This document shows, in pieces, positions 53 to 27,950 of a stretch of DNA of 64,000 bases. Source of the stretch: Candidatus Kerfeldbacteria bacterium. GTDB taxonomy: Bacteria; Patescibacteriota; Patescibacteriia; SBBC01; CAIJZX01. The stretch is from NCBI GenBank assembly GCA_903825245.1, contig CAIJZX010000016.1, positions 2,100-66,099 on the forward strand, read 5' to 3'. The notes beneath the pieces were generated by a model, which was given only the letters and a program-made list of their open reading frames with translations, made no database searches and was not told the DNA's origin. Position 1 is the stretch's first letter; every line of letters begins with the position of its first letter. The position numbers and the translations under genes are program-made.

Positions 53-89
53 ACAAAAAAACACATCGCGGGTTTCGAAACCCGCGATG
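53..89 (-). terminator. Rho-independent terminator closing the adhesin-sortase-Ig operon (13-bp perfect palindrome CATCGCGGGTTTC/GAAACCCGCGATG followed by T-run on minus strand)
   Basis: Perfect inverted repeat at ~64-89; A-run at 55-61 on plus strand is a U-run on the minus strand immediately 3' of the hairpin; lies directly after the stop of the 105..1166 ORF. Confidence 0.7.
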
Positions 90-104
90 TGAGATTTGAG
101 AAAT

Positions 105-1166
105 TTATTGGATCGGGTGTTTTGGCTGAAGTTTCATGGCCGCCGCGGAGAAGGCCAATGTTCCCAAGGTCACAACCCACGCCCACCAGGTCTGTCCTCC
201 GCAACCGTATTTGCGTTGGATGTAGGCGAGGAGCGCCGCACCAGCGAGCGCAACAATTGCCGGCCAGATTTGGATAATCGGTACGAGCGTGTAGAGCAGG
301 GCGACGACGATCAAGAACACAATCAAGAGAACAATCCATACCCACGGCTTCAGTGTAGAGCATGACTTGTCGGTTGATGTACTCGCTGATTGTAGATTAG
401 TGACCGCTGCGTTGGTCGTAGCATTCAAGTTATTGTTAGTAATCGCGATGTTCGTGTTGACATTACCGTTGGTCGGCTTCGTCATATTCGTATTGACCGA
501 CGTGTTCGTTGTAGAGGCTGCGGTGTTTGAGTTGACATTACCGTTGGTCATAGCAATATTTGTGTTCGTGGCCGGTGTGGATGCAACCACAACACCTACT
601 TGTCCGGTAATTGTTCCGACAGTGGCTTGTACTTTTCCGGTGCCAACCGTGGTAGGGGCGAAGACGCCAGATGTCGATATTGTGCCTATTGTGCCGATAA
701 CTGACCAGGTGACCGTGGCGCCAGGAATAATGTCATTATGGCCATCGTAGACTTTAGCGGTGAAAGTTTTATTGCTGCCAATCACCGTCGGCTCCGGATC
801 AGAATTTGGATTAATGACTATTTCCTGAACCTGACCGGCTGTTATCTGAATTGTAGCAGTCGCGGTAAAGCTCTGATACGCTGCCTGAATAGTCCAGGTA
901 CCTGCAACGCCTGGCGTAAAAACCGCATTGGTAATTGTACCGAGCGCATCGTTGGACGATAGTGTTGCTGCTGGTGTTACATCAAGCGTTGTGCCATCTG
1001 TATTGGTGGCAATCACCTTGATGGCTTGTGTTTGGTCGGCAGTAATCGTGGCCGTTGATGGTAAAATGGCAATCGAACTGACCGTGGCTGCTGAAACCGG
1101 CCGCACAATCATAACTCCGAGAGTGAGAGCGAAGATGCTCAGTAGTCGAGAGGCAGGGGAACGCAT
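105..1166 (-). CDS. Surface protein with N-terminal signal peptide, two bacterial Ig-like (BIG2-type) domains, Asn/Thr-rich spacer and C-terminal transmembrane helices
   Basis: ORF translation shows signal-like N-terminus (LLSIFALTLGVMIVRPVSA), Ig-like beta-rich repeats, NxT low-complexity tract, hydrophobic C-terminus. Confidence 0.6.
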   Translation of the reverse strand: MRSPASRLLSIFALTLGVMIVRPVSAATVSSIAILPSTATITADQTQAIKVIATNTDGTTLDVTPAATLSSNDALGTITNAVFTPGVAGTWTIQAAYQSFTATATIQITAGQVQEIVINPNSDPEPTVIGSNKTFTAKVYDGHNDIIPGATVTWSVIGTIGTISTSGVFAPTTVGTGKVQATVGTITGQVGVVVASTPATNTNIAMTNGNVNSNTAASTTNTSVNTNMTKPTNGNVNTNIAITNNNLNATTNAAVTNLQSASTSTDKSCSTLKPWVWIVLLIVFLIVVALLYTLVPIIQIWPAIVALAGAALLAYIQRKYGCGGQTWWAWVVTLGTLAFSAAAMKLQPKHPIQ

Positions 1167-1175
1167 AGGAGAAGA

Positions 1176-1853
1176 TTAGCTAATGAGATTGGCAAAAATG
1201 ACGAGACGTTGTTTGGTTGAAAAGAGTGGTGTGCATGTGTAAATAGTAATCTGTGGTTCGGTTGTTGGATTTTGAATATCAACACGAGATGGGTCGACAA
1301 TATCGCGCTGGTTGACACGGTAATCATACTCGATACCGTGCCAGTAGACAATAATCGGTTCGCCAACTTGTAGCTTATCAAGGAGGTAAAGTGTCCGACT
1401 ACTAGGCGGAAGATACTCCCAGCGGTGTCCCGACAGTACGGTGTTACTGCCGTGCAATGGATCGGAGGTGTTTGGAATGTGCCAGATGCCGCCGAGGTCG
1501 AGTGTTTTTTCGGTTGGACCTTCGAGAATTGCCATGTTGACGCCGATACTTGGGATCACAAGGCGATTATCTTTCGGAATCGGATTATTTTTCGTGACCG
1601 GTAATTGCGACAGAGAAATTCCCGAATTTTTTTCAACCACATTGTTCGTAACTAACTTTGTGGTGTAGGGAAAAATCGATTGTTTTTTGGATACAGCAAA
1701 TTCGATTTTTGGCAGAAACGGATAACTGACGATAGCCAGACCGATAACAATCAGGCTTATTGCGCCGACCCAAGTCCACCACTGATTCCGGTGTGAAACC
1801 GGAATCGGTGAGAACGAAGGTTGCGGAATGTTATTGAGCGAATCCATGGACAC
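1176..1853 (-). CDS. srtE: Sortase (class E-like transpeptidase)
   Basis: N-terminal TM anchor, conserved His (VLSGHRW) and catalytic TLxTC-type motif (ITIYTCTP); adjacent substrate carries LAXTG rather than LPXTG, the class E preference. Confidence 0.8.
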   Translation of the reverse strand: MSMDSLNNIPQPSFSPIPVSHRNQWWTWVGAISLIVIGLAIVSYPFLPKIEFAVSKKQSIFPYTTKLVTNNVVEKNSGISLSQLPVTKNNPIPKDNRLVIPSIGVNMAILEGPTEKTLDLGGIWHIPNTSDPLHGSNTVLSGHRWEYLPPSSRTLYLLDKLQVGEPIIVYWHGIEYDYRVNQRDIVDPSRVDIQNPTTEPQITIYTCTPLFSTKQRLVIFANLIS

Positions 1854-4800
1854 CGCGTTTGCGGAGCCGTCCGGCTGTGAATAGACCGAAGGCGAGACAA
1901 CCGAGGCCGCTGGCGAAGATCAGATAGTCTCGGAACGAAGCGCCGGTGGTTGCTAAGCCGAGGACTTGCGGAACCTTAACCGTGACTTTTGCTGTGGCGT
2001 TTAAAGGTTCAAGTTCTGTCGAACGGACGGTAGCCTTATTGACAAATGTTCCAGCTTTGACGGTCGAACCAACTAGGACATCGTAATTGATGATGCGCTG
2101 GTGGTTTGCTTTGAGTGTACCGATCGTCCAACTTTTCGTTGTCTTTCCAGTGTCCACGAAGGTGAATCCTTTCGGCAAAGTATCACTCAGTGTCACATTG
2201 GTTACATCAATATCACTGGTGTTGCTGATCGTAACTGTGTAGGTTACGGTCTTTCCCGGATTTGTTGTTGTCGCGAGAACGGTCTTAGTAAGTGTCATGG
2301 TCGGAATCGCCATTGCACCGAGCACTGCTGGCACACGGACATCGACATTGGACGTGGCGCTGACAGAGGTAGCGTTCGTGCTGGCAGCAGTAGCTGTGTT
2401 GGTGTATGTGCCGATTGCTTGTGTGGTGCTGATGTCAGCCGAGTAAGTGGTGACAATCGAAGCGCCAGGAGCCATATCACCGAGAACAAATGTTCGTGTG
2501 ACACCACCAATCGTGGTGTAGGTGAAACCGGCTGGCAAAACATCTTTCAATGTTACCCCACGTGCTGTGTCAGTTGCCGATGAGGCGTTGGTAACAGTTA
2601 CGGTATATGTCACAGATTGGCCAGGGTTGGTGAAGCCGACAATATTGTTTGTCTTCGTGATTGAGAGCGACGGTTTACCGGTAAACGTGTTCGTGATAGT
2701 GCACGATTTTACGTCACCGACGTTCAAGGTTATTGCGCCGGTAGCCGAGCAATCACCGGTAATAACGCCGGAGTAGTTCGCTTGATTCGTTTCCGAAATC
2801 GTGTATGTTCCGACGTTGAATCCGTTCTGAATACTACTGGTAACTTTCGTTGTGTTGACGAAGAGTGGGAAGTCAGAGACAACCTTTGTTCCACCAACAA
2901 CAACCTTATTGACGGTGAGTTTTGGTTGGATGCCGGTGTTGCAAAGCGTGACGGATGCGCCAGCTGTAGTCACGGTAACTGGAATCGGCAGGGTCGTGAA
3001 TTCCGGATTGGCGCAACTGTAGGCGTGCTCACTTTGGTCTATCGTACCATTGATGTATGCGCCAACGAAGGAATAGTTATTGACTGAGGATTCTGTCACA
3101 ACGTGTTGGCCGGTAACAATATTGCTGAGCGAGGTGCCCATCAAATTCGTGTCACCAAGATCGAGCTGCCAACGAAACGGTGTAGCCGTTCCGCTGACAT
3201 CGACAAATCCTTTGCCGTCAGCATTATCAACTTTCTTATTGACTGTGATCGTGCCAGTATCGCGAGTGTTCGTGATAGTGCAGGTCTTCATATCACCTAG
3301 ATGAAGTGTAATCGTACCATTCGATGCACAATCGCCACCCCATACAGAAGCGGAGTATCCGTAAGCAGGGTTGTTCACTTCGGAAACCACGTAGGTTCCC
3401 GCATTGATGCCGGTTTGAATTCCGGAAGTAACCGAGGTTGTTCCTACTGACAATGGGAAGTTAGCAACAGATTTATCACCACCAACCACTGTTTTTATAA
3501 CGGTAATTTTCGGTTGGATATCATCGTTGGTAATGGTACAAATTGCGGTGCCGCCGTTCGGGATTACTACGTTGGTGCAATTGTCGTACGTTGTGCTATA
3601 TCCGACAGCTGGATTTTCTACAATGGAGTACGTTCCTGCATTAACGGTAATGTCATTTTGCGCGTCAGCTTCGAATGAAACGCTAGTACCATTATTCACC
3701 TTAAAGGAGAAATCGGTGACCACCGTATTGCCGCCATTATTATTGATCAAGTTTTTCTTTACAACCAACGAACCCGGCTTATCATTATTTGTGATAGTAC
3801 AGACTACGTGTTGTCCAAGCGTAATTGTACCCGAACATGAACCGGACATAGTCGCTGTATAACCAGAGTCTGGCGTTTCAGAAACCGTGAATGTTCCCGG
3901 AACGACGTTCGTCGTCACGCCAGTTGTGCTGCCGGCAAAATTCGCCGTGCCGGCCGTGCCAGAGATGTGCATGGCGAAATCACCAGCTACTTTTTTGCCA
4001 CCGTTGTCATTCGTGACCAATTTCACAACATTGATCGTCGTAGAACATGCAGCGCTGACCAAAGTTTTTGGTGATGAGAAGGCGACGTCGCTGCCGACTT
4101 CAACTCCATCGGTGTGGCCGATGTTTTGCACGTTCCACGTTGTACATTCTGTACCGGTGGACGTTGTTGCTTGGAGTTGGATAATGCCATGTTCACCAGG
4201 TCCAATTTCATGAAGGTTGCCAAGTAATGTCACAGTGGATCCATTGAAGGTAGCTGGGAAGACTTCTGGGGCTGGATCGCCATCATTGAGATCTTGGTCA
4301 TTGGCAATCGAAACAAGCTTAGCGCTATTGTTGACGTAGGTTAAACCCGCGCCGAGCGTGTCGTACAACTTTACGCCACCGCCGGTACAGAACGCATGAC
4401 CATCGTTGTGGTAGTCAATGGTATACGTTAAGGTGTCGCCGCCGTTCGCCGAAGTGGTATTGACCGCTTTGGTTACTACTAAGGAACAAGCGGCTGTAAC
4501 TTTTGTATCAGCAGTAGCTGGGGGCACTGTGACATGATCAGCTGTGACAACTGCCGAATTATGAACATTCGTTGTGCCTTCAGGGAAAATGCTTGGCAGT
4601 GTTCCGGTAATCGTAATTGTACCGCTCGCACCAACAGCGAGATTACCGATAGTCCAGACATTATTGCCAGTAGTCGGGGTTGGCGTTGAATGGCCGAATG
4701 AAAAACGCGAGTCATAACTTTCGATCACTTGAACGTTGGTCAATGGCGTATTGCCAGTGTTGCTGTAGGTTAGTGTGTACGTCAGTGCATCGCCTGGTTG

Positions 4801-7800
4801 GGCGATGGTTTTATCTACGCCCTTGGTCAATTTCAGGAAGTATACCGGTGTGAGTGTATTGGTGAGTGTGCAGGTGACCGCTTGTCCAGCGATAACCGTA
4901 ATGACACCATTCGGACAGCTTGAAGAAAACGTCGGTGTATATCCGGTCGGACCGTCGGTTTCAGAAACCGTGTATTGGCCGACAGTGAGAGGATACACTG
5001 TACCGGATTCATTTCCTGCTTGTGGACTGTTTGCAATCTCGGTCGTTCCTTGCTTCACATGGAGTTTCCAATTTCCGGCAACGGCTGTGCCACCATCAAC
5101 ATGCTTGATAACTTTTAACGTACCGGTATCGCGTGCATTGATGATCGTGCACGTGCCGCCCTTGGAGTTGGCGTTCAGTGAGATCTGGTTATTAGAATTT
5201 ATCGTACAGACACCAGTGGCACCGACAAAGTGGTAGCCGGAAACAGTGTTTTCGGTGAGCGCGTAACTTCCGGTCGCAATATCTGCTTGATCGCCGTTCT
5301 TGTAATCGTGGCTATTCGTGGAAAAGATGAATTTCGACAGATCAGCACCTTCTTCGTTGTTGACGATTTTTTGGAAGGTAATGTGGCTGGTATCATGAGC
5401 GTTACACAGTGTGATGGTCGTACCATTATTCGCCACCGTGACTGGGATTGGCAGTACGGTGAATTGCGGATTGGAACAGCTGTATGCGTGCTCACTGCGA
5501 TCCGTTGCGCCGTTGAGGTATGCACCGACAAAGGTGTAGTTATTGACTGTTGGCTCGGTAACAGCGTGTTGTCCAGTGACAATAGTGCTGAGTGTAGCGC
5601 CCATGAGATTTGTGGCGCCGAGATCGAGTTGCCAACGGAACGGGGTTGCTTCACCGCTGACATCGACAAACCCTTTACCGTCAGCATTATCAACTTTCTT
5701 ATTGACCGTGATTGAACTGGTATCACGGTGGTTGCCGAAGTCTTTACCGGTAACTTGGCCGTTCACGCCAAGTGAGACAACATAGGCATTGGTTTTTGGC
5801 ATGGTTTGCGTCCAGCCCGCAACGTTCTGTTCCATCACATCATAGCTGATCGGCAATAAGTTGCCGAAGGTATAGTGACCGGTACTATCGGTGGTCGTGC
5901 AAACCGGGGCAGTTCCACCGGAGGACAATGTCATACAGATCGTCCAACCTTGAATACCAGGTTCGCCCACATCTTGTATCCCATTGCCGTTGTAATCATT
6001 GAACTTCATTCCGGAAATAGACGATGGTTTCTGCTTGTTGGTAATAGTGACTTCAGTGGTGTGGCCGTTCGTTACAGTAATCTGAGCACCAGCGAGGTTC
6101 GGGTCATTGTCGACTGAATAGCCAACTAATTGGTAATTCGGCGCAAGAGCAATCAACTCGGCCACAGTGTATGTACCGGCCGGCAAGGTGTATGAAGCAT
6201 CTTGATTTTCAGCCACGGTCTTATCGTTTGTGCCATTCACTTGGACGGTAAATGGATTGGTATCGATAACCTCGCCGTTCTGGAAATTCACAACGTTCTT
6301 ATGGACGATGAGTGTGCCAGAACAACCGGTGGTCAACGTTGTGGTTACTGTATTGCTGGAAACGACTTTCGGCATGAGTTCGTAGGCATATCCTTTAGCC
6401 GTATTGTCGTACGTAGCGGTGGTGCATTCCGGAATGGTTGTTGGAATGTCCGCTTGAAAGGTAACATGACCATATTCACCAGCTGACACATTATTCGTGT
6501 CCCAGCTGAGAAGTTTCGCGCCGGCAGTAATGTTCGCTGCTGGATTTGCCGCCGGGAAACCTATGTTCATAAGGTCATCATATGGATAACCAAACTGAAT
6601 CGGAAACGCATTGATATTGGTCGGATCGTTTTCCGCCAGGTTTTCACCGCCATCGACAGATTCCGTGTGTTTGCCGTTGTAGGTCAATCCAGTCGGAACC
6701 GTGTCATCAATACGAACGCCACCGCCGCGACAAACGGCGTTGCCGATATTCTTGTAGTCGATACGGTATTCCAATGTATCGCCCGGTTGATTTGGTCCGT
6801 TCGGGTGTGTCAAGTTCTTGACGGTTTTTGTTAGCGTTAAACCGCAAGCAGCCGGGACATTCACAAATGATGTGGTACCGGTTGGTTGTGCATAAGAGAT
6901 TGTCACCGCGTGCGTATCATTGCTTTTCACGTAACCTGTTGGGGCTGTCGTTTCAGTCACGTTGTACAAAATACCAGCTTGACTTGTCGCGAGTCCGGTG
7001 AAGGAAACGACGCCATCGGCGACATCGCCATCTGCGCCGTCAGTTTTTGATTGGCAATTAGCGCCGTTGCAGATTTGGAATGTTGCGCCGTTGAGTTTGT
7101 GTTCGGTAGTATCGTACTTGGTAACGGTAATTGTTCCGGTTGACGGAGCATTCGTAAATGTACAATCGATCTTCCCTTGATCAGAAATCGGTAAACCGGT
7201 TATCTGTCTGTTCGCGGTATCGGCTGTTCCTACGTTTGCTGTACCGTTGGTGCAGATAACATTTTTCAAGTACGTGCCGGCCTTGACGGTTTCGCCGACT
7301 GAATATGTTCCGACGGCCACATTTTTGAATTCGAGATAGCCGGTGGTGCTGGTTGTCTGTGTGACCGGGGTAGTGCCGTTATTCACGGTAAAGTCGTAAC
7401 CGGAAACGCTAGTGCCGGAAGTGGAAACAGTTGTGCCGTCATCAAATTGTTTTTGAACGGTAATTTTTCCACCACATAATGCATTAACGTAACCTGTGAG
7501 TGCGGCCTGTAAGCCGGTAAAATCGGCAACTTTAATGACATCAGTACTGGTCGAGATGGCGCTTGTCGTGGTTGCGACATTCGGTCCGCTGATGTTTTCC
7601 ATCTTTTGTTGCTTCTCGGCGATCGTGGCCGGATCACTTTCATCATCACCGATTGCGACGACGACGATGCGTGTACCGGCAGTTTTAATTGCGTTGGCAG
7701 TTTCGATAGCCGGGTTGAGCGCATTGATATAGCTAAAGTCGTTCGTTACCGGATTCCCATAACGATTTGGACTGCCGTCGGTGGCGATAACGATAAGATG

Positions 7801-8343
7801 TTGCTTATTTTGAGCCGCGGTGAACGACGCGGCACTGACTGCTAAACCAGCCTGCCAATTCGTATTGCCATCTCCGACAGCCGGAATAATGGCGTTGTTA
7901 GCGATGTCGGCTGACGTTTGAGACGGAGTTAACGAAAAACCATGTTGCAGAGTAGCGTTCGTGCTGAACGATGTTAGCGAGAAATCAGTAGGTGTCAGCG
8001 CAAAAGCATTGGTAAAACTCGACAACGCAGTTTTCATACTGGTCATCTCGGTCAAGTTGATGCTACCGGAAGTATCGACGATTAAACCGACATTCAGGTT
8101 ACATGAAGTGGTGAGTGCAGGATTAACTGAAGTTGAGGGTGTAGCGGATGGGGTGATCGTTGTATCCATTGTCCCTGTTTCGATCTGTGTCGGCATTTCA
8201 GCCGCTTTTGCGACTGTCGGCTGGAGCAATGTCCCAACCATGCTGACGTTCAAAATCGTGGTGATCCCAACCACAACATTGAGTGTTTTCCACACTCGTT
8301 CGCGGGTTGTCTTCCGCGGAATAAGATTGATTCGGATGTTCAT
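1831..8343 (-). CDS. Giant (2170 aa) sortase-anchored surface adhesin: N-terminal signal peptide, vWA domain with MIDAS (DTSGS...ATDGSPN), many SpaA/CnaB-type isopeptide-like and DUF11-like beta-sandwich repeats, C-terminal LATTG sorting signal + hydrophobic segment + RLRKR tail
   Basis: ORF translation; C-terminus ...LGLATTGASFRDYLIFASGLGCLAFGLFTAGRLRKRGVHGFAQ is a canonical cell-wall sorting signal with the LAXTG variant; internal protein repeats (e.g. TITVNKKVDNADGKGFVDVSG... twice). Confidence 0.85.
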   Translation of the reverse strand: MNIRINLIPRKTTRERVWKTLNVVVGITTILNVSMVGTLLQPTVAKAAEMPTQIETGTMDTTITPSATPSTSVNPALTTSCNLNVGLIVDTSGSINLTEMTSMKTALSSFTNAFALTPTDFSLTSFSTNATLQHGFSLTPSQTSADIANNAIIPAVGDGNTNWQAGLAVSAASFTAAQNKQHLIVIATDGSPNRYGNPVTNDFSYINALNPAIETANAIKTAGTRIVVVAIGDDESDPATIAEKQQKMENISGPNVATTTSAISTSTDVIKVADFTGLQAALTGYVNALCGGKITVQKQFDDGTTVSTSGTSVSGYDFTVNNGTTPVTQTTSTTGYLEFKNVAVGTYSVGETVKAGTYLKNVICTNGTANVGTADTANRQITGLPISDQGKIDCTFTNAPSTGTITVTKYDTTEHKLNGATFQICNGANCQSKTDGADGDVADGVVSFTGLATSQAGILYNVTETTAPTGYVKSNDTHAVTISYAQPTGTTSFVNVPAACGLTLTKTVKNLTHPNGPNQPGDTLEYRIDYKNIGNAVCRGGGVRIDDTVPTGLTYNGKHTESVDGGENLAENDPTNINAFPIQFGYPYDDLMNIGFPAANPAANITAGAKLLSWDTNNVSAGEYGHVTFQADIPTTIPECTTATYDNTAKGYAYELMPKVVSSNTVTTTLTTGCSGTLIVHKNVVNFQNGEVIDTNPFTVQVNGTNDKTVAENQDASYTLPAGTYTVAELIALAPNYQLVGYSVDNDPNLAGAQITVTNGHTTEVTITNKQKPSSISGMKFNDYNGNGIQDVGEPGIQGWTICMTLSSGGTAPVCTTTDSTGHYTFGNLLPISYDVMEQNVAGWTQTMPKTNAYVVSLGVNGQVTGKDFGNHRDTSSITVNKKVDNADGKGFVDVSGEATPFRWQLDLGATNLMGATLSTIVTGQHAVTEPTVNNYTFVGAYLNGATDRSEHAYSCSNPQFTVLPIPVTVANNGTTITLCNAHDTSHITFQKIVNNEEGADLSKFIFSTNSHDYKNGDQADIATGSYALTENTVSGYHFVGATGVCTINSNNQISLNANSKGGTCTIINARDTGTLKVIKHVDGGTAVAGNWKLHVKQGTTEIANSPQAGNESGTVYPLTVGQYTVSETDGPTGYTPTFSSSCPNGVITVIAGQAVTCTLTNTLTPVYFLKLTKGVDKTIAQPGDALTYTLTYSNTGNTPLTNVQVIESYDSRFSFGHSTPTPTTGNNVWTIGNLAVGASGTITITGTLPSIFPEGTTNVHNSAVVTADHVTVPPATADTKVTAACSLVVTKAVNTTSANGGDTLTYTIDYHNDGHAFCTGGGVKLYDTLGAGLTYVNNSAKLVSIANDQDLNDGDPAPEVFPATFNGSTVTLLGNLHEIGPGEHGIIQLQATTSTGTECTTWNVQNIGHTDGVEVGSDVAFSSPKTLVSAACSTTINVVKLVTNDNGGKKVAGDFAMHISGTAGTANFAGSTTGVTTNVVPGTFTVSETPDSGYTATMSGSCSGTITLGQHVVCTITNNDKPGSLVVKKNLINNNGGNTVVTDFSFKVNNGTSVSFEADAQNDITVNAGTYSIVENPAVGYSTTYDNCTNVVIPNGGTAICTITNDDIQPKITVIKTVVGGDKSVANFPLSVGTTSVTSGIQTGINAGTYVVSEVNNPAYGYSASVWGGDCASNGTITLHLGDMKTCTITNTRDTGTITVNKKVDNADGKGFVDVSGTATPFRWQLDLGDTNLMGTSLSNIVTGQHVVTESSVNNYSFVGAYINGTIDQSEHAYSCANPEFTTLPIPVTVTTAGASVTLCNTGIQPKLTVNKVVVGGTKVVSDFPLFVNTTKVTSSIQNGFNVGTYTISETNQANYSGVITGDCSATGAITLNVGDVKSCTITNTFTGKPSLSITKTNNIVGFTNPGQSVTYTVTVTNASSATDTARGVTLKDVLPAGFTYTTIGGVTRTFVLGDMAPGASIVTTYSADISTTQAIGTYTNTATAASTNATSVSATSNVDVRVPAVLGAMAIPTMTLTKTVLATTTNPGKTVTYTVTISNTSDIDVTNVTLSDTLPKGFTFVDTGKTTKSWTIGTLKANHQRIINYDVLVGSTVKAGTFVNKATVRSTELEPLNATAKVTVKVPQVLGLATTGASFRDYLIFASGLGCLAFGLFTAGRLRKRGVHGFAQ
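2950..3280. repeat. Intragenic DNA repeat copy 2 (~320 bp) within adhesin gene, near-identical to 5420-5750
   Basis: Spurious plus-strand ORFs 3080..3304 and 5543..5785 (and 2782..3087 vs 5230..5715) give near-identical translations, showing the underlying DNA is duplicated ~2.46 kb apart; boundaries approximate. Confidence 0.7.
5420..5750. repeat. Intragenic DNA repeat copy 1 within adhesin gene (partner of 2950-3280)
   Basis: See partner repeat; adhesin protein segments ...ITVNKKVDNADGKGFVDVSGEATPFRWQLDLGATNLMG... and ...ITVNKKVDNADGKGFVDVSGTATPFRWQLDLGDTNLMG... Confidence 0.7.
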
Positions 8344-8718: not shown

Positions 8719-8743
8719 TAAAAAACCGTCTTTTTCAAGACGG
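8719..8743 (-). terminator. Rho-independent terminator after CAP-domain gene (CCGTCTT-loop-AAGACGG + U-run on minus strand)
   Basis: Hairpin ccgtctttttcaagacgg at ~8726-8743 preceded on plus strand by A-run. Confidence 0.6.
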
Positions 8744-8763: not shown

Positions 8764-9828
8764 TTACGTTGTTACCGTCTGTGGGATAAGTACTTGCTTC
8801 TGAGTTTTTGCTGTTAAAAGTGATCGAATAACAGCTGCGGCCGAGATGACTGACAAGTAGAAGCAGAATGTACCAAGAAGTAACCATTCTGTAGATTCTG
8901 AGGTTTTGGCGGACGATAGTATTACCGGTGAGACCTGGTTGTGGATAACCTCAGTAGTCACTCCTTGCACCTCAGGTACCGGTATGAGTTGTGTTTGCTG
9001 AACAATTGGCGTTGTGACTATTGGCGGAATGATAGTGGGGATTTCGATTGTTGGTTGTTGTAATGGGGTAGGTGCGGTCTTGATTGCTGGAACAACAGAC
9101 GGCGCGGTTGTCGTTGGGATTACCGGGGCAACAGTTTTGGACGGTGCTGGTTTGACGCTTGTAACTTCCGTCTGTGAGATTGGAGCAGTCTGGTTGTACC
9201 GGCTTCCGAAGAATTGCACAACGATGATTGTCGCCTGACCTTTCATGGTTCCATCAACGACGGCTATGCCTATGTCGCGGTATGAGGCGTTGAGAAGATT
9301 TTCGCGGTGGCTGGCCGAGTTCATCCAAGCTGGGACAATGTCACTGCCGTCAACGAAATCGATAGCTAAATTTTCACCGGCTGAGGTGTATACATAGTGT
9401 TGCGAATTGAACCACACCCACGGAGCTTGGCCGGAAGGCGAGTAGTGATTGAAGTATTGCTGAGCGAACATGTCATCAGCTTTCGCTTGGGCAGCTTTAG
9501 TGAGTGCGGAATTTTCCGTCAACGCAGAAAGACCGTGTTGCTGGCGCACAGCGTTTGTTTGCTGAATAAGTTCTGCCGAGGTGTACGTCGCAGCGTGTGA
9601 CAGCATTGGTGTTGCCCAGAGACTAACGACAAGTAACAACGTATTCAATAAACGCCCCGAAGTTTTCTTCGGTGTTGTTGCAAGCGTGAGTTGTTGTTCC
9701 GGCACCATGGAGATCGTCAAACCGTTGAGGCTGGGGCGGATTACGACGTCGCCGTTGTTGTGTTTCATAGGTGTTGATTGCTTCCGTTTGTTGAACGAAA
9801 ATACGCGCTTGTCTAAAGCGCGTTCCAC
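8764..9828 (-). CDS. Secreted CAP/SCP/PR-1 (YkwD-like) domain protein with Pro/Thr-rich linker and C-terminal TM anchor
   Basis: Motifs typical of CAP domain (…HYSPSGQAPWVWF…GENLA…HRENLL…YRDIGIAVV…) followed by PT-rich tract and hydrophobic C-terminus. Confidence 0.7.
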   Translation of the reverse strand: MERALDKRVFSFNKRKQSTPMKHNNGDVVIRPSLNGLTISMVPEQQLTLATTPKKTSGRLLNTLLLVVSLWATPMLSHAATYTSAELIQQTNAVRQQHGLSALTENSALTKAAQAKADDMFAQQYFNHYSPSGQAPWVWFNSQHYVYTSAGENLAIDFVDGSDIVPAWMNSASHRENLLNASYRDIGIAVVDGTMKGQATIIVVQFFGSRYNQTAPISQTEVTSVKPAPSKTVAPVIPTTTAPSVVPAIKTAPTPLQQPTIEIPTIIPPIVTTPIVQQTQLIPVPEVQGVTTEVIHNQVSPVILSSAKTSESTEWLLLGTFCFYLSVISAAAVIRSLLTAKTQKQVLIPQTVTT

Positions 9829-9940: not shown

Positions 9941-11023
9941 ATGACTATGAAAGCTGTCATCATGGCTGGCGGAAACGGCACACGACTGTGGCCGGTATCA
10001 CGTCAACAGTCACCGAAACAAGCGCAACCGTTCGGCGATAACGAAACATTGTTGCAAAAAACCTACCGGCGTTTACGACGCGGGTGGAGCGATAAAGATA
10101 TTTTTGTTTCAACAAGCGTCGATCAGTTTTCTATCTTACGCAAGCAATTACCGAAATTACAATCGTCGCAGTACATTTTAGAATCTGCGCGACGCGATAC
10201 CGCCTCGGCCATCGGCTTAGCTGTGGCGGCGATTCATAAAAAAAATCCGCAAGAAGTTGTCTTTACGGCTAACTCCGACGCCTACCTGAAAGAAACGGAT
10301 GCCTATGTGAAAGTTATCAAGGATGCCGGTGCACTTGTTAACCGTTTCCCGAATCAAACAGTGCTGATCGGCATCAAGCCGCGTTTCGCTGATACCGGAC
10401 TCGGGTATATCAAAATGAAAAAACAAGTCGACTCGATCGGCGGTCATGACGTTTTTCTTGTTGATCGCTTTGTCGAGAAACCGGATCGTGCGACCGCCGA
10501 ACGATATGTAGCGAGTTGGCAGTATTTGTGGAATCCAGCCATGTTTGTGTTTCGTGCGGATGCGATGTTGGAAAAGTATCGGCGCTGGTTGCCGTCGTCA
10601 TACAAGTTGTTGATGCAAATGCAATCGGCAATAGGAACATCGCGAGAGCGAGCGACGATTAAGCGGCTATTTCCGAAAATGCAGAAAATTTCTATCGACT
10701 ATGGCATTATGGAAAAAGATCGGCAAATGCTGGTCATGCCTGCCGATTTGACCTGGTCCGATATCGGTTCGTGGTCGGCAGTGCACGATATGCTCGCTGC
10801 GCATCCGCATCATAATGTCAGCCGGGCGAAACATATCAGCATTGATTCACGTGGGAATTTACTTTTCAGCTATACCGGTAAGCTTATCGCGACCGCTGGT
10901 TTGCAGAATATGATTGTCATCGAAACCGACGACGCGATTCTGGTTTGCCCAAAAGACCGGGCACAGGATGTGAAGCAAATAGTAGTTGAACTGGAGCGAC
11001 AAAAATTGAATTGTCACCTCTAA
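9941..11023 (+). CDS. manC: Mannose-1-phosphate guanylyltransferase (GDP-mannose pyrophosphorylase)
   Basis: N-terminus MKAVIMAGGNGTRLWP… nucleotidyltransferase signature; true start taken at internal ATG (ORF track start 9851 is an upstream extension). Confidence 0.8.
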   Translation: MTMKAVIMAGGNGTRLWPVSRQQSPKQAQPFGDNETLLQKTYRRLRRGWSDKDIFVSTSVDQFSILRKQLPKLQSSQYILESARRDTASAIGLAVAAIHKKNPQEVVFTANSDAYLKETDAYVKVIKDAGALVNRFPNQTVLIGIKPRFADTGLGYIKMKKQVDSIGGHDVFLVDRFVEKPDRATAERYVASWQYLWNPAMFVFRADAMLEKYRRWLPSSYKLLMQMQSAIGTSRERATIKRLFPKMQKISIDYGIMEKDRQMLVMPADLTWSDIGSWSAVHDMLAAHPHHNVSRAKHISIDSRGNLLFSYTGKLIATAGLQNMIVIETDDAILVCPKDRAQDVKQIVVELERQKLNCHL

Positions 11024-12042
11024 TGCGCTACGTCTACGCGATTATTGGAGGATTCATCATTGTCGTTGGTATTGCCGTCGGGTGGATGCTGTTGTCGGTA
11101 AATCATGCGACTGGATCGGCGTCACAGCAAGTGTCGTTTACTGTTGCTCGAGGGCAACAACTTCGGAGCGTCGCCGTGGCTTTGCAAAAAGATAACCTTA
11201 TTTCATCAGCCGGGGCTTGGACATTGTATGCGCTGACGCAAGGGAAGCGTTCGGGAATTTTGGTCGGGGATTATGTGTTAGATCGCGGTATGACCGGTCG
11301 GCAGATTTTGCAAACGATTTCGACGCAGAATGCAAAGGACAACGAGGTGATGTTAACGTTTAAAGAAGGTTTAACAAATAAAGAGATCGCTTCAAGCTTA
11401 GAAACAGCGGGTGTCGTTAGTGCTAGTGATTTTCTAGCGGCAGTAGGCGTGACGGACAGCCGAACCGTGGTTGCAAAAGACTATACATTCTTAGCGGATA
11501 AACCCGCAAGCGCCGATCTCGAAGGATATCTTTTTCCAGATACGTATCGATTTTTTAAGAAATCAACCGCGGCATCGGTGTTGCAGAAGTTTCTCGATAA
11601 CTTCGATCAGCGTGTAACACCGGCGCTACGCCAAGCGGCGAAGGCTCATGGACATACGCTGTATGAGGAGTTAACGATGGCCTCAATTTTAGAGAAAGAG
11701 TTAAAAACTGATACCGATCGTGCGAACGGCGCCGATGTGTTCTGGAAGCGCATTGATATCGGTATGCCATTACAGTCCGATGCTACTGTTATCTTCTCCA
11801 CCGGACAGTCGAATATCAATGTCTCAATCGCCGATACGAACACTGATTCACCATATAATACCTACCAACACAAAGGTTTGCCACCGGGGCCGATCAATAA
11901 TCCGGGCATTTCGTCGCTCCGCGCGGCTATCAATCCGACGAGTAATCCATATTATTACTATTTGACTGCACCGGATGGGACGACGTATTTCGCGAAAACA
12001 TTGGCTGAACATAACGAGAACAAGGCTAAGTATTTAAAGTAA
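11011..12042 (+). CDS. mltG: Endolytic murein transglycosylase MltG (YceG-like)
   Basis: N-terminal TM, YceG-like conserved C-terminal region (…GLPPGPINNPG…). Confidence 0.8.
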   Translation: MSPLMRYVYAIIGGFIIVVGIAVGWMLLSVNHATGSASQQVSFTVARGQQLRSVAVALQKDNLISSAGAWTLYALTQGKRSGILVGDYVLDRGMTGRQILQTISTQNAKDNEVMLTFKEGLTNKEIASSLETAGVVSASDFLAAVGVTDSRTVVAKDYTFLADKPASADLEGYLFPDTYRFFKKSTAASVLQKFLDNFDQRVTPALRQAAKAHGHTLYEELTMASILEKELKTDTDRANGADVFWKRIDIGMPLQSDATVIFSTGQSNINVSIADTNTDSPYNTYQHKGLPPGPINNPGISSLRAAINPTSNPYYYYLTAPDGTTYFAKTLAEHNENKAKYLK

Positions 12043-14116: not shown

Positions 14117-14148
14117 CTCCACACTAAACTACGGTGTGGAGTTTTGTT
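14117..14148. terminator. Bidirectional rho-independent terminator (CTCCACAC-loop-GTGTGGAG + TTTTGTT) after rplL, overlapping stop of convergent gene
   Basis: 8-bp perfect stem followed by T-run on plus strand. Confidence 0.7.
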
Positions 14149-16375
14149 AATGGTTCAGCGTGAAGGATGAAATGGTTACGCCGCTTAGAGCGTACGCTGT
14201 CTTTGTCTTTTCGTTGACTGTTATGTCACGAAGATCGGTCCAGGTTGGGGAGGTATATTGATCAACAAGCTTTCCTGTTTTTGTCATAACCACGATGCGA
14301 TGATGTCCCGGATCGACGAGGTAAATGTTTGTCATAGTTGAGTCTGTAATCAATCGAGTGGCGTCGGTTAGTGGTGGGTCAATAGTGCTTAACGTCAACG
14401 TGCCTTTCCGGCCATTTGCATACAACTCAACAACGCCGTGTGGTTGAAGAACGAAAATTGAACCATCAACTTGGAGGCTACGTGCGGCAGAAAGTTGAGC
14501 AGCTTCTTTTAACCAGAGTGTTCCTGTACCGAGAGAAGTAGCGCCGATAGTAAAGCGGACAATGGAAGTATGCGCTGCATCGAGTGTGTACAGTCTGTTT
14601 TGGTATATGGCTACCGATTGCACTCGTGAATTCGGGGTTGGCCACGTTGCATCGAGGGATTTCCAGGTTTTTTTCTGAGTATCAAGCAATAAGAATCCAT
14701 TGCGATCTGTACTGAACAAGACGCCAGATGTACCGCTAATGGCGCCAGTAGCTACTTTCCCGGTGTCGATAGTAGGGTTGGCGATAACTGTAGTCGTATT
14801 TGTTGTTCCTAGCGTGGTTGCAGTCACAATTGTCTGGCCCGGATCAACGGTAATGAGTTTGGTACCGGATAAATAGAGCTGTTGTGGTTGAATGTTAGGA
14901 GCGGTGGTTAGGAGATTAGCTACTACAGTTGGCTGCGGTATTGTTGTTTGGTGCGATAACTTAGCGATCAACTGGTTGATTGACGTTAGTGCTGATTGTC
15001 GAGCCGCTCTGTCTTTTGCGGTGTGGTTTGGCAATGCGTTGTAGAGTGTTTGAGCGGCTTGGAGTTCCTGTTGAGCAGTGACCTCTCCACCATATATAAT
15101 AGCAGCATTGGCTTTGGCAATATGATCACTAATGGTGGCTGATGAGTTTGTGGTAGCAGCAGTGGTTGGTGAATGGTGTTTCGGTAAAATACTAACCGCT
15201 AGAACCACAATCAGTACAAACGTTACACCAAGAAGAATTTGTTGCTGACGAGAAAGTCGTTGAAACGCAGAAATAGTTTGATTGAGCGAAGGTCGCCAAC
15301 GTCGTTTCATGGTTGTTGGCAATATGGCTGGGGGCGGTGCTGTTGGGATGTTTAGTCTATTCGGCCGGATGGTGGCAAAGAAATGCGTAGTTTCATCAAA
15401 AGTTCTTCGGAATATGCGGTGTACAGATGGCCAAAAACTTGATGTCGATCGCGCGAGTGACTGATTTTGTATGCTGCCGGGGACCGTTCGTCGCGGTGGT
15501 TTATGTAAAACCTTCTGACGTGTTATGGTTGATACGCTGCGAGTAATTTGAACGACTACGTCGCGAAAAGCTGGCCAGATTGATGGCGAGAGTAAACGTT
15601 CAGTAGCTTGTTCTTTGGCAATTAAATGCTCCATGGAAACTTGTGGGGCAGATTGTGTCAGGGTGGCCTGGGCTACAGGACGGCTCATCGGCGTCGTTAC
15701 TGTCTCAGCGGCGACCGATTGCACAATCACTGCTGCGAATGATGATTGCTGCTTAACACCTAAGAGTGTTGATTCCCATTGATGAACGGCTGCTGATGGG
15801 CTGCCATCAAGAAGTGTCCGTCGAAGTTTTTCTAGTGAGAAATAGTCTAGTAACGACGGGGTACAAAAAAGTAATTGATCGTCGGCCTGTAATTGGCCAG
15901 CAATGACGTGAGAAAATATTCTGATGGGATTGACGGCAGTACTTTCGTTGTCGCCTAATAAATCATGCATTCGATTCCGGCGGAATAAATACCCATGAAT
16001 AGCCCCGACGGAACTCATTACCACTTCGTCTCGCCATATAGCGGCGATAAGAATGTTCGCTGTCTCAACCCATTGACTAACGCCGTCGGTGATAACACTG
16101 TGGAGTCGTCGGTTCGTTTGCTGAAGAGCATGTTCAAGTGCACGTTCTGGTTTTACGTCAGCCGATCGGTAGTACGCGGTGCGCAGTTCCTCTTGGATGA
16201 GATTTACTACATCAAGATGAACACGGTCCGTTCCGGCGATAGTAGCAACCACAATTAACTTACCTAATGCCTGCTCTTCAGTCGGTGTCGGACGAGAAAT
16301 CCAAACATTCGCCGCCGTTGGCGAATGGTTGGGGTCGTAGATGAGGAGGGTTTCAAATCGTTGGCGGAGGGGCAT
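14147..16375 (-). CDS. Hypothetical large membrane protein: N-terminal cytoplasmic domain, central TM segment, C-terminal extracellular beta-propeller-like repeat region
   Basis: ORF translation; single hydrophobic stretch (ILLGVTFVLIVVLAVSIL) mid-protein; C-terminal half rich in T/G/V beta-strand repeats; no confident family assignment. Confidence 0.5.
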   Translation of the reverse strand: MPLRQRFETLLIYDPNHSPTAANVWISRPTPTEEQALGKLIVVATIAGTDRVHLDVVNLIQEELRTAYYRSADVKPERALEHALQQTNRRLHSVITDGVSQWVETANILIAAIWRDEVVMSSVGAIHGYLFRRNRMHDLLGDNESTAVNPIRIFSHVIAGQLQADDQLLFCTPSLLDYFSLEKLRRTLLDGSPSAAVHQWESTLLGVKQQSSFAAVIVQSVAAETVTTPMSRPVAQATLTQSAPQVSMEHLIAKEQATERLLSPSIWPAFRDVVVQITRSVSTITRQKVLHKPPRRTVPGSIQNQSLARSTSSFWPSVHRIFRRTFDETTHFFATIRPNRLNIPTAPPPAILPTTMKRRWRPSLNQTISAFQRLSRQQQILLGVTFVLIVVLAVSILPKHHSPTTAATTNSSATISDHIAKANAAIIYGGEVTAQQELQAAQTLYNALPNHTAKDRAARQSALTSINQLIAKLSHQTTIPQPTVVANLLTTAPNIQPQQLYLSGTKLITVDPGQTIVTATTLGTTNTTTVIANPTIDTGKVATGAISGTSGVLFSTDRNGFLLLDTQKKTWKSLDATWPTPNSRVQSVAIYQNRLYTLDAAHTSIVRFTIGATSLGTGTLWLKEAAQLSAARSLQVDGSIFVLQPHGVVELYANGRKGTLTLSTIDPPLTDATRLITDSTMTNIYLVDPGHHRIVVMTKTGKLVDQYTSPTWTDLRDITVNEKTKTAYALSGVTISSFTLNH

Positions 16376-16993: not shown

Positions 16994-17409
16994 AACTAGT
17001 TATACAAACGAACGTCGCCGGACGGTTGTTGTTTTGGTTGGTGGCGAAAGGCAGTATTCAAGCCAAACTTTCGAAAATAGTACAATGGCATGGTTCAGAT
17101 GTGGCCTTGCAAGCCATAGATACGATGTTGAAGAAAAACAAAAAAACCTTATCAGGGATTGTCGTTGTTCGCGGCCCTGGATCATTTACGGCTGTTCGTA
17201 CCGGATTGATTATTGCCAATACATTAGCAAGCCTTCTCGATCTCCCGGTATATGGTGTTGTTCATACTTTAACGCTAACCGATAGCGAGGTGCTGAAGGT
17301 TGTTCAACAAGAAGGTAAGCGCCGGACATTGATCAAGCCGTGGTATGGCAAATCACCGAATATAACGAAATCAAAAAAGAAACTACCTCAAGCAAGGGCG
17401 AAACGCTGA
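16990..17409 (+). CDS. tsaB: tRNA threonylcarbamoyladenosine biosynthesis protein TsaB (YeaZ), short form
   Basis: GPGSFTAVRTGLIIANTLA motif typical of TsaB/YeaZ; only 139 aa (short). Confidence 0.65.
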   Translation: MKLVIQTNVAGRLLFWLVAKGSIQAKLSKIVQWHGSDVALQAIDTMLKKNKKTLSGIVVVRGPGSFTAVRTGLIIANTLASLLDLPVYGVVHTLTLTDSEVLKVVQQEGKRRTLIKPWYGKSPNITKSKKKLPQARAKR

Positions 17410-17954
17410 CGTTGTTCAACCGGTCGCGGATCAATGCCGCGGGAGAATTGTTGTAGGATGAGTCCGGAAACACCAAACCAATCGCGTAGGGTCTGATGGG
17501 AAACATCTCGAAAGGCAGCAAACGTTGTCACGCCGTGTTTTTCTAAGTACCGTGTCGTGCGTTCTCCGAGTCCTGGCAGTAATCGAATCGGAAGTTGGGC
17601 TAGAAATTCCTCAGTCATTGCTGCGGTTACAATTGTGCAGTGCGGTGAACCACGGTAGAGGGCGGCGGCGCGAGCGGTCGTTTTTTGTTCGGCGGCTCCG
17701 AAACGAATGTATGCACCGTAGGTATGTCGCAACGCTTGGTAGACTTCCTGTACTCTTGCTTTTGTCATCCACGGCTCAAGAGATATGTACGCACTGCGGA
17801 CGGAATCAAATTCATAACTTTGGACGCCGCGAATCTGGTCAAAGATTTGCGCGTGACCGAGGAGTATCGATTGGAGGGGGAGTTGAAGATAAGCGATCAT
17901 CCCGTTAGATGGGCGAATTGATAATGACCGTTGGTGTACGAGGGTTGATGACAT
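17388..17954 (-). pseudogene. 5'-truncated Y-family DNA polymerase (DinB/UmuC-like) fragment downstream of lexA
   Basis: Translation matches palm-C/thumb/HhH region of DinB (…FGAAEQKTTARAAALYRGSPH…LPIRLLPGLGERTTRYLEKHGVTTFAAF…) but the N-terminal catalytic ~150-200 aa (DxD, SIDEA motifs) are absent and only ~100 nt separate it from lexA. Confidence 0.55.
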
Positions 17955-18057
17955 ATGTTGGTTGCCCGTCTAACGGGACAGGTAGTTGAATGAAAGCCGA
18001 AGAAAAACCGAAGTAATAATGCTGTAAAAGCGCGCACTTAACATACGCGCCTAACAG

Positions 18058-18678
18058 TTAGTATTGTCGAATGACGCCAAGAACCTTACCCTGAATAACG
18101 ACACTCTTCACGTCGATCGGTGAGTACGTGCGGTTTGCCGGTTGTAAACGGATAAAGTTTCGCTTTTTGAAGAACTTCTTTAATGTGGCGGTGCCATCAT
18201 CGAGTAGAGCGACCACCGTATCGCCGTCTTTCGCGTAGTCAGTTTTTTCAATAACAACGAAGTCACCATCGGCAATAAAGCTTTCAATCATAGAATCACC
18301 TTTGACTTTAAGGACATAGGCGTTCTTTCCGCGAACAATTTCTTCTGGTACCGCTAACGAGACGTCGCGATTTTCAATCGCATCAATCGGGTAACCAGCG
18401 GCGATTGTGCCGACAACTGGCAAAGATATGCTTCGTGCAATCGTTGCGGCAAACGTCTTGAGTCGTGACGTCAGTGTAATACCGCGTTCTTCGCCTTCAG
18501 CGCGATCGATAAATCCGCGTTCTTCGAGGAATTGCAAATGTTCGTGAACCGTTGAGAGTGCGTTAACATCAAGAAACTTCGCAATTTCAGAAAGTGTTGG
18601 TGCATATCCGTGTTGCTCAATATAGTCCTTTAAAAATTGAAGAACTTTCTGTTTCGTTTTTGGTAGGATATGAGCCAT
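18058..18678 (-). CDS. lexA: LexA repressor (S24 peptidase)
   Basis: N-terminal wHTH (…GYAPTLSEIAKFL…), Ala-Gly cleavage region, Ser/Lys dyad domain (GDSM…). Confidence 0.9.
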   Translation of the reverse strand: MAHILPKTKQKVLQFLKDYIEQHGYAPTLSEIAKFLDVNALSTVHEHLQFLEERGFIDRAEGEERGITLTSRLKTFAATIARSISLPVVGTIAAGYPIDAIENRDVSLAVPEEIVRGKNAYVLKVKGDSMIESFIADGDFVVIEKTDYAKDGDTVVALLDDGTATLKKFFKKRNFIRLQPANRTYSPIDVKSVVIQGKVLGVIRQY

Positions 18679-19702: not shown

Positions 19703-19711
19703 TTGTCTCGG

Positions 19712-20764
19712 ATGGAATATCTCGGGAGCTTCTCGAGAGTGGCCACCGGGCGAGCTCAGCTCGCGGAAAATTTCAGTGTTGCTGAAATAGAACCGTGGGT
19801 TTGGGGGTACAACATGACAACAGAATCGGCTGGTTCTGATAACCGTGTTCATCTTCTGCCGTTCATTTCTGGGCAGGATATGAAGTGTAAGCTGTGCCTG
19901 ATGCGGCACGAAGAAAAAAAGACGAAGGAGCAGATAAACAGAGAAGGGGTTGCGGCCATTGTCATTATGAGCCTCGTCGCAAGCTTGATTCTGGCTGCAC
20001 TGGTGTTCGGCATTCCGCGACTCTGGGGAGCACACCACTGGTCGTTTCAGAATATTTTCTTCATCGGACTGGGCGTGTGTTTCCTGTTGGTGATGTGGTT
20101 GTTCGCCTTTGGCCAGAGTCGGTTCGTTTTTCACATGGATGGACACAACCACGTCCACTTTAAGGATCCTCGTCGGCAACTTCTACCAACCGGGAAATTC
20201 TACTGGCACGCGCCGTCAACGGAGGCCAAAGAATGGCCTGCTGGCAGTAGTGTCATCGAGGGTCCGATTCTCAGGATCCGGCATTTCGGGTGGCTGACAA
20301 AGCTACTGTATTACTGTTTCAGCGCCAACAATTCCTATAACGGCTTCCTGATCGATGACTCAGGTGATGTTGACCCCAAGATTCAGTTGACCCACTCCTC
20401 GACTCTTGAGGATTGTAGGTTTGCGGGGGCGTCGGAGTTGCCGTGGGCTGTGAAAGATGCGGGTGCAATGCTTGACTTCATTCGTACCCACCAGTCGCTC
20501 AAGCGCTACATGCAGAGTTTCGACGACATGGTAGTCGCCAAGACCTCGGTTGAGGATCTTGTGCTGGCAATCAGGGAATACCTGTATGCCTCACGGGATC
20601 GGGGTCAATCTTCCTCAGTTGGCCGTGCCATTCGGGAGATGATCGAAGTTTCGGATTTTGGTCATTCTTTCCCACTGAACGATGAGACCAGTCGGCGCGG
20701 GCGTCAGATGGAAGAGTTGCTCAGCTCAAGATTGGCTAGTCCATCAGGCCAGGGTACAAGTTAA
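19712..20764 (+). CDS. Hypothetical membrane protein (two predicted TM helices, ~250-aa cytoplasmic domain); GC-rich, start uncertain (19703 TTG / 19712 ATG / 19814 ATG)
   Basis: ORF translation; GC3-rich codon usage unlike neighbours. Confidence 0.5.
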   Translation: MEYLGSFSRVATGRAQLAENFSVAEIEPWVWGYNMTTESAGSDNRVHLLPFISGQDMKCKLCLMRHEEKKTKEQINREGVAAIVIMSLVASLILAALVFGIPRLWGAHHWSFQNIFFIGLGVCFLLVMWLFAFGQSRFVFHMDGHNHVHFKDPRRQLLPTGKFYWHAPSTEAKEWPAGSSVIEGPILRIRHFGWLTKLLYYCFSANNSYNGFLIDDSGDVDPKIQLTHSSTLEDCRFAGASELPWAVKDAGAMLDFIRTHQSLKRYMQSFDDMVVAKTSVEDLVLAIREYLYASRDRGQSSSVGRAIREMIEVSDFGHSFPLNDETSRRGRQMEELLSSRLASPSGQGTS

Positions 20765-24297: not shown

Positions 24298-24298
24298 C

Positions 24299-24330
24299 AC
24301 CTCCATCGTACGACGGAGGTTTTTTGTAAG
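24299..24330 (+). terminator. Rho-independent terminator (CCTCCATCGTACGACGGAGG + TTTTTTG)
   Basis: Stem-loop followed by T-run directly after 23995..24297. Confidence 0.7.
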
Positions 24331-27927: not shown

Positions 27928-27950
27928 GGTGAAATCTCCTTCTTTGGGGT

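Follow-up and report, generated by a model that had tools for sequence, protein, structure and literature searches.

The window analysed here, a 64,000-nucleotide stretch of Candidatus Kerfeldbacteria DNA, carries near its start a unit of three co-directional minus-strand open reading frames (ORFs), which encode a giant surface adhesin, then a sortase and then an Ig-like membrane protein (hereafter the partner). The locus is an ordinary kind of system, a sortase together with an anchored adhesin, in an uncharacterised, lineage-specific form. Its features are as follows.

8343..1831, minus strand: adhesin gene, 2170 residues, ATG start (ORF and translation)
8203..8343, minus strand: predicted Sec signal peptide, adhesin residues 1–47, with basic n-region RKTTRERVWK, hydrophobic core and AKA-AE (read from the translation)
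7591..8094, minus strand: vWA domain, adhesin residues 84–251 (PF00092, 46.7 bits against a cut-off of 23.8; also PF13519)
1969..7473, minus strand: stalk, adhesin residues 291–2125 (Pfam, NCBIfam and sequence motifs)
1834..1965, minus strand: sorting signal, adhesin residues 2127–2170, composed of VLG, LATTG, ASFRD, a hydrophobic segment and a basic tail
1853..1176, minus strand: sortase gene, 225 residues from GTG or 223 residues from the ATG at 1847
1166..105, minus strand: partner gene, 353 residues
52..91, minus strand: intrinsic terminator with its stem at 91..62 (13 base pairs, eight of them G-C), a loop of 4 and a T7 tail

The adhesin and sortase ORFs overlap by ∼17–23 nucleotides, and a gap of 9 nucleotides separates the sortase from the partner gene. 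A database protein identical to the window sortase (P0001) begins at the ATG at 1847 and contains 223 residues. The terminator stem at 91..62 directly follows the partner gene and is the strongest terminator-like site in the first 10 kb, which confirms the original prediction, made from the sequence alone, of a co-directional adhesin, sortase and Ig-like trio ending at a single strong terminator. The gene upstream of the unit (9828..8764, minus strand) ends at its own terminator (8743..8726) and is separated from the adhesin by an intergenic region of ∼420 nucleotides. The three genes thus form a separate, self-contained unit. Shuffled sequence yields sigma-70-like promoter matches at least as often as the region 5' of the adhesin does, and an Rfam search identifies no RNA element within the operon or close to it. 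The upstream gene encodes a protein of the CAP (cysteine-rich secretory protein) family, which is likely to be secreted too.

The N-terminal head of the adhesin is formed by the vWA domain. Its metal ion-dependent adhesion site (MIDAS) motif is complete, with D90-x-S92-x-S94, T161 (in GNTN) and D189 (in ATDGS) as read from the sequence, and this motif and the PF00092 match together substantiate the predicted vWA/MIDAS domain. In total, the adhesin contains about 17 β-sandwich domains of the CnaB/SpaA, SdrD-B and DUF11 types. Seven SpaA/SpaA_2 (CnaB-type) domains are supported by Pfam (PF17802 or PF19403), one SdrD_B domain spans residues 778–850, and five DUF11/TIGR01451-type domains are located in the stalk. 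These Pfam and NCBIfam matches bear out the array of CnaB/SpaA-like and DUF11-like sandwiches that had been proposed. A 300-nucleotide internal duplication of one domain (2938–3237 and 5401–5700) retains 76% DNA identity. A phmmer search of the whole adhesin against solved structures yields no match.

The stalk units share a recurring arrangement of residues. The pattern [ILV]x[VI]xK ... [ST]E ... [CT]x[ILF]xN is observed in 11 units, with the Lys near the unit start in the first strand, the Glu at an internal position and the Asn at the end in the last strand. One of the Glu sites resembles an E-box, YNVTETTAPTGY. In the CnaB domains of pilin and MSCRAMM structures, Lys, Glu and Asn residues in this arrangement form intramolecular isopeptide bonds. 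The adhesin also contains 32 cysteines N-terminal to the sorting signal (residues 81–1881), which make up 16 consecutive pairs, approximately one per domain (for example, 1503/1515, 1589/1602 and 1672/1688); two of the 32 flank the vWA domain. The regular pairing suggests one disulfide per stalk domain, beside the putative isopeptide bonds.

Conservation is concentrated at the C-terminal end of the adhesin. Orthologues share only the C-terminal ∼290 residues, comprising two DUF11 domains and the sorting signal, at 48–64% identity, and their N-terminal part varies in length and composition, as is usual where a rapidly evolving binding end sits on a conserved anchoring base.

The sorting signal and neighbouring substrates

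The adhesin terminates in VPQVLG-LATTG-ASFRD-YLIFASGLGCLAFGLFTAG-RLRKRGVHGFAQ. LATTG occupies residues 2130–2134 (nucleotides 1942–1956) and is followed by the spacer ASFRD, a 19-residue hydrophobic segment (YLIFASGLGCLAFGLFTAG) and the basic tail RLRKR. The signal adopts the classic tripartite form with Ala in the place of Pro.

Related signals were sought in the window and in 80 related loci (L001–L080), which were kept from a pattern scan of one genome per species that returned 275 encoded sortase relatives. An ORF of at least 100 residues was counted as signal-bearing when its C-terminus consists of L-x-x-[T/S]-G followed by a hydrophobic segment and then a basic tail. In all, 59 such ORFs are found in 42 sources (41 related loci and the window). 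All except one (58 of 59) lie on the sortase strand, against a nearly even split among all ORFs of at least 100 residues (1274 on the same strand versus 1339 on the opposite strand), and the signal is therefore not a chance match. On the sortase strand, 52 of the 58 are located upstream of the sortase. LATTG follows VLG in 18 signal-bearing ORFs, 17 in related loci and that of the window, with VRG once. The sequence-based claim of a genuine C-terminal LATTG sorting signal is upheld by the tripartite form, the retention of VLG-LATTG in orthologues, where its loss would have spoken against a sorting signal, and the linkage to the sortase.

A different reading takes the C-terminal segment as a membrane anchor only and lets the neighbouring sortase act on other proteins. 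It leans on cleavage being something that we infer and on the adhesin being the only substrate candidate in the 64-kb window. It is extremely unlikely, given that VLG-LATTG-x4-D is far more conserved than the remaining protein, that the adhesin and sortase ORFs overlap, and that signal-bearing ORFs are tightly linked to a sortase in 41 other loci.

The second position of the motif is variable among the 59 ORFs, with Ala in 34, Pro in 17, Glu in three, Gly in two, Val in two and Thr in one. Accordingly, LAx[TS]G accounts for 34 substrates, LPx[TS]G for 17 and motifs with another residue for eight. The distance between the motif and the hydrophobic segment is more uniform: a five-residue spacer between the Gly and the hydrophobic segment ends with Asp or Glu in 52 of the 59. 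In three loci (L017, L065 and L072), LAxTG and LPxTG proteins adjoin one sortase, and in two others (L024 and L025) LVDTG is found beside LPDTG. Metagenomic homologues of the C-terminal module exhibit LATTG, LADTG, LEETG, LTETG and LPKTG. Because single sortases adjoin both LAxTG and LPxTG substrates, Ala at position 2 is not a class E marker in this family, and the earlier reading of LATTG as the class E motif does not hold. Judged from these sequences, alanine is one option at a tolerant second position.

Seven loci (L011, L012, L015, L017, L018, L019 and L021) contain an extra gene of ∼220–240 residues between the adhesin and the sortase, which has no counterpart in the window. Its product consists of a signal peptide, one DUF11 domain and a sorting signal of its own (L[A/P/T]xTG), and could act either as a further substrate or as a subunit of a shaft or base.

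The sortase and its class

The window sortase exceeds the superfamily cut-offs of PF04203 (84.1 versus 26.6 bits) and TIGR01076 (52.7 versus 39.35 bits). The catalytic residues H143, C207 (in ITIYTC) and R216 are invariant in 23 relatives. The protein is composed of an N-terminal membrane helix (residues ∼22–46), a stalk with an invariant P62-Y63 pair and a catalytic barrel. It has no C-terminal membrane segment and ends two residues after the last strand. The AlphaFold2 model (predicted local distance difference test (pLDDT) score of 82) forms an eight-stranded sortase barrel, which Foldseek matches to solved sortases at E values of about 4e-12 with target-normalised TM-scores of 0.54–0.74. 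Outside the usual motifs, P45, P48 and P62-Y63 are invariant after the membrane helix (residues 45–63; window positions 1665–1721), and the P-Y pair could serve as a lid over the active site. A conserved (W/F)xYLPPS...YLLD segment follows the catalytic His (residues 144–158; window positions 1380–1424) and is absent from classes C and E.

Hundreds of homologues are found, and all of those with a source name belong to Patescibacteria (the candidate phyla radiation, CPR), mostly to Candidatus Kerfeldbacteria. The 80 related loci span Kerfeldbacteria, Dojkabacteria, Saccharibacteria, Parcubacteria, Falkowbacteria, Komeilibacteria, Buchananbacteria and a Microgenomatus record. The small-genome host surmised from the sequence is confirmed by this distribution, since the homologues and the 275 genomic matches all come from Patescibacteria records. 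Several records of metagenome-assembled genomes that contain the cassette (L003, L004, L007, L015, L016 and others) are titled 'uncultured Gammaproteobacteria bacterium', and this label is probably wrong. Sortase genes have already been reported from over half of CPR genomes (Meheust et al. 2019; PMC6744442). The literature found on CPR sortases merely notes their presence.

The enzyme had been predicted to be a class E sortase. The curated NCBI class models have cut-offs of 140–165 bits, with a value of 160 for both class E (NF033747) and class C (NF033745). Against these models, the window sortase scores 70.1 bits for class C, 59.0 bits for the LPxTATN-type class D, 57.5 bits for class E and 53.2 bits for class D. 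Class C is the best class in all 23 family members (the window enzyme and 22 relatives), yet far below its cut-off. The best class E E-value among the 23 is 4.5e-20, and none of them comes near the cut-off. When the family profile is compared with solved structures, the ten best matches are all class C enzymes (72–54 bits), followed by C. perfringens SrtD (53 bits), S. coelicolor SrtE1 (49 bits) and A. oris SrtA (48 bits). Real class E chains score 106–129 bits with an approximate class E-like query composed to retrieve them, in contrast to 32–49 bits with the CPR family profile. Foldseek against the PDB retrieves sortases of classes A, C, D and E at E values of about 1e-11 to 1e-10 and does not separate the classes.

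The structural signatures of class E are also missing. Class E is defined by a conserved tyrosine in the β3/β4 loop, which is the proposed alanine reader (Tyr229 of SrtE1 and Y128 of the T. fusca enzyme), and by a long β6/β7 insertion (Kattke et al., PMC5148588). The class E structures 5go5, 5cuw, 5utt and 9iok carry G-H/W-Y, and each of the ten aligned CPR sequences has Ile or Leu (W-H/R-I/L-P) at the position of the tyrosine. The β6/β7 loop of the CPR enzymes is 8–10 residues shorter than in these four structures and equals that of class C in length. With a class E score of 57.5 bits against 160, Ile or Leu for the tyrosine, no β6/β7 insertion and a higher score on the class C model, the class E assignment in the original prediction is not sustained.

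It is correspondingly unlikely that the enzyme is a true class E sortase, housekeeping and LAXTG-specific as in Streptomyces and Corynebacterium, and only very divergent. Several observations nonetheless favour this relationship. The substrate is LATTG, and LAx[TS]G predominates among the neighbouring substrates; the enzyme has an N-terminal and no C-terminal membrane anchor; and the class E enzyme SrtE3 of S. avermitilis takes both LAXTG and LPXTG (review, PMC8225981). The homologues carry mixed NCBI names: some are called 'class E' sortases, one 'class D' and others just 'sortase'. Rough neighbour-joining (NJ) trees, which were built from 132 columns and in which classes A, C and E alone supplied the references, place the CPR sortases in a clade of their own with 66.5% support. 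This clade is sister to the four solved class E enzymes in 77–85% of bootstraps with BLOSUM62 or PAM250, and to class C in 62% of bootstraps with identity distances. It lies outside the class E group in every tree, and classes C and D both outscore class E. The sister placement and the NCBI names make the class E label unproven rather than absurd. We would drop that label. In our reading, the sortase represents a distinct Patescibacteria-wide lineage that qualifies for no curated class and that may be a distant sister of class E.

The class C matches raise another alternative, in which the enzyme is a class C-like pilus polymerase and the big protein is the tip adhesin of a covalent pilus or fibre instead of a singly wall-anchored protein. 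The best-scoring relatives, in models and in structures, are indeed class C enzymes; the adhesin combines vWA and CnaB domains in the layout of tip pilins and contains the E-box-like site; and the small DUF11 proteins with their own signals in several related loci are possible shaft or base subunits. We nevertheless judge this alternative very unlikely. The YPK pilin motif is not found in the adhesin, the window has no small second substrate, and the enzyme lacks a C-terminal membrane segment and scores 70 bits against the class C cut-off of 160. The D-P-[FWY] lid motif of class C is likewise not found: only x-P62-Y63 is conserved, and the residue in the place of the Asp is variable.

The partner protein

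The partner contains a signal peptide, two Ig-like (Big_2-like) domains (residues 29–109 and 113–195), a disordered N/T-rich linker of ∼70 residues (∼200–268) and three membrane helices, which AlphaFold2 places at residues 274–294, 301–320 and 327–345. The model is confident, with pLDDT values above 90 for the two Ig-like sandwiches. Its best structural match is to the Big_2 repeats of Leptospira LigA (E = 1.6e-14), and the description of the third gene product as an Ig-like membrane protein is accordingly retained. Pfam gives no match for the window protein at E ≤ 0.01, but PF02368 is present in some homologues.

With a family hidden Markov model (HMM), 20 of the loci L001–L021 can be assessed for the partner gene, and in 18 of them it directly follows the sortase. 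Iterated HMM searches for the partner in the distant loci L022–L080 give nothing convincing, and the partner is therefore taken to be confined to one branch. Among 1.84 billion representative proteins, its membrane module is limited to about 10 clusters, which share one architecture, and shows no relationship to any known family. The cysteines C269, just before helix 1, and C322, in the helix 2–3 loop, are invariant across the 19 partner sequences. They are predicted to face outward because the N-terminus is outside and three helices follow. The tryptophans near the outer membrane face are also invariant. A redox role of the DsbB or VKOR type for the two cysteines is speculation, as no CxxC motif and no homology are found. 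Lys178, which had been considered as a sortase acceptor, was downgraded because it is near-invariant among close relatives and not across the 19 orthologues.

The partner is most likely an accessory factor or a co-displayed surface component. A conserved gene for a membrane protein that directly follows a sortase gene has a single precedent, actinobacterial SafA, a 52-residue protein with one helix and an exoplasmic FPW motif, which is encoded directly after the housekeeping sortase and protects it from signal peptidase (PMC9282373). A direct part for the partner in sorting, either as a SafA-like stabiliser or regulator or as an acceptor or platform for the adhesin, is consistent with the conserved gene position, the restriction of the family to one lineage and the invariant cysteines and outer-face tryptophans. 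We consider such a part rather unlikely: the partner has no likeness to SafA in sequence or size, the candidate nucleophile Lys178 is nearly invariant in close relatives only, two related sortase copies lack the gene, and co-transcription may reflect mere co-display.

Anchoring model and comparison with known systems

The arrangement of the genes, their domains and catalytic residues, the conserved signal and the synteny of the locus point to sortase anchoring of a Gram-positive-like kind, in which a giant adhesin is attached by a Patescibacteria sortase outside class E in the company of a lineage-specific partner. We hold this reading with good confidence. The 2170-residue adhesin would be exported through Sec, and its hydrophobic C-terminal segment and RLRKR tail would retain it in the membrane. 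The membrane-anchored sortase would cut after the Thr of LATTG via Cys207, with His143 and Arg216, and a surface amine would resolve the acyl-enzyme. The acceptor would most likely be lipid II or peptidoglycan, and a peptidoglycan acceptor is plausible because the window encodes MltG/YceG (268 bits) and a MurJ lipid II flippase (244 bits). The mature adhesin would form a long rod of ∼18 domains of the CnaB, SdrD-B and DUF11 types, and the metal-dependent vWA/MIDAS head at its far end would be plausible for attachment to a host or partner cell. The sortase clade as a whole is expected to accept L-[A/P/other]-x-T-G and a five-residue spacer that ends with Asp or Glu.

Several points weigh against parts of this model. 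The placement of the CPR clade relative to classes C, D and E shifts with the distance measure in the NJ trees, and the trees that join it to class E count in favour of the older label. Four of the 11 CnaB-like units (within residues 873–1070 and 1694–1885) have no Pfam match, and the Lys-Asn isopeptide bonds of the CnaB-type domains, though probably formed, are read from the sequence pattern alone. A vWA domain related to that of the window is present in only some orthologues (L008, L012, L009, L028 and L059), so the binding function is no fixed property of the cassette. Two related sortase copies (L014 and L020) are not followed by a partner gene, and the partner is therefore not obligatory for every sortase of the clade. 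Finally, the envelope of these bacteria is poorly known, and the acceptor could be something other than peptidoglycan.

A bolder proposal, which we advance tentatively and regard as doubtful, is that the family constitutes a seventh sortase class. Such a class would be characterised by an L-x-x-T-G-x4-[D/E] signal, tolerance at position 2 and acceptance of Ala without the class E tyrosine, and its Kerfeldbacteria-like branch would add the dedicated Ig/three-helix partner, with its invariant pair of cysteines facing outward, as a stabiliser, platform or acceptor for a host-attaching giant adhesin.

Patescibacteria are thought to live attached to other cells. To our knowledge, few of their attachment molecules are known beyond type IV pili and the Pam pili described recently. 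The locus provides a concrete attachment candidate, with a rod predicted to be covalently anchored, a metal-dependent head, its own sortase and a lineage-specific partner. The LAxTG motif is not to be read as 'class E', and sortases that are widespread in CPR fit no curated class; this matters for automatic annotation, which at present labels members of one family variously as class E, as class D or simply as sortase. The points of note are the misfit to all curated classes, the conserved partner gene and a signal that is extended and tolerates different residues at position 2, and the family is of interest to those who seek sortases of new specificity for protein ligation.

The remainder of the window contains further genes. 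A glycan-synthesis cluster (46893–53382, plus strand) encodes an initiating sugar transferase, two GT4 glycosyltransferases and a DUF4012 protein; MurJ is located further on (59676–61373, plus strand), and MltG/YceG at 11011–12042. These genes indicate that the organism synthesises peptidoglycan and, probably, a surface polysaccharide too. An RNase P RNA of bacterial class A (46533–46983, plus strand; 191.8 bits) is overlapped by the sugar transferase ORF (46893–48380, TTG start), whose real start is thus probably further downstream. A type II/IV secretion ATPase of the PilB/PilT-like kind is encoded at 45300–46451 (minus strand), and at 17388–18678 (minus strand) a LexA repressor adjoins a fragment-sized ORF with Y-family polymerase thumb motifs. 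The long ORFs at 14147–16375 (minus strand), 19703–20764 (plus strand) and 27988–29043 (minus strand), of 742, 353 and 351 residues, respectively, match nothing in Pfam at E ≤ 0.001. The G+C content is higher at 24000–31000 and 53400–60000 (0.54–0.59) than elsewhere (0.46–0.50). The stretch at 53.4–57.4 kb has no ORF longer than ∼175 residues, only short overlapping ORFs on both strands, and may consist of foreign DNA, of decayed genes or of non-coding sequence.

Among known systems, the class E enzymes S. coelicolor SrtE1, A. oris SrtA and T. fusca SrtE share with the window sortase a single-pass N-terminal anchor, a His-Cys-Arg barrel, substrates with Ala at position 2 and the housekeeping-like anchoring of a non-pilin surface protein, which would be the role here. 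The window sortase differs from them in its low identity (25–31%), the lack of the tyrosine, the shorter β6/β7 loop and the extra YLPPS segment. Class E hosts are Actinobacteria, in contrast to the Patescibacteria here, where related loci mix LAxTG with LPxTG, LExTG and LVxTG. The class C enzymes A. oris SrtC2 (8t28) and S. agalactiae SrtC1 share the best HMM and profile scores (70–72 bits), the β6/β7 loop length and the Leu or Ile where class E has Tyr. Unlike them, the window sortase lacks a C-terminal helix, the D-P-[FWY] lid and a pilin-motif substrate, and its score lies far below the cut-off. SafA and the partner have in common a gene immediately downstream of a sortase, conserved synteny and conserved aromatic and proline residues at the outer face. 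The partner differs from SafA in its length of 353 residues, its two Ig-like ectodomains and three helices and its lack of FPW, and no homology to SafA is detectable. The adhesin resembles the vWA-bearing, CnaB-based tip adhesins RrgA, GBS104 and SpaC of Gram-positive bacteria and the MSCRAMM-type stalk proteins SdrD and Cna in its MIDAS-containing vWA head, a CnaB-type stalk with putative Lys/Glu/Asn triads, an SdrD B-like repeat of the calcium type and a sortase signal at the C-terminus. It differs from these proteins in being ∼2–3 times longer and in its five DUF11 domains, its one cysteine pair per domain and its LATTG motif.

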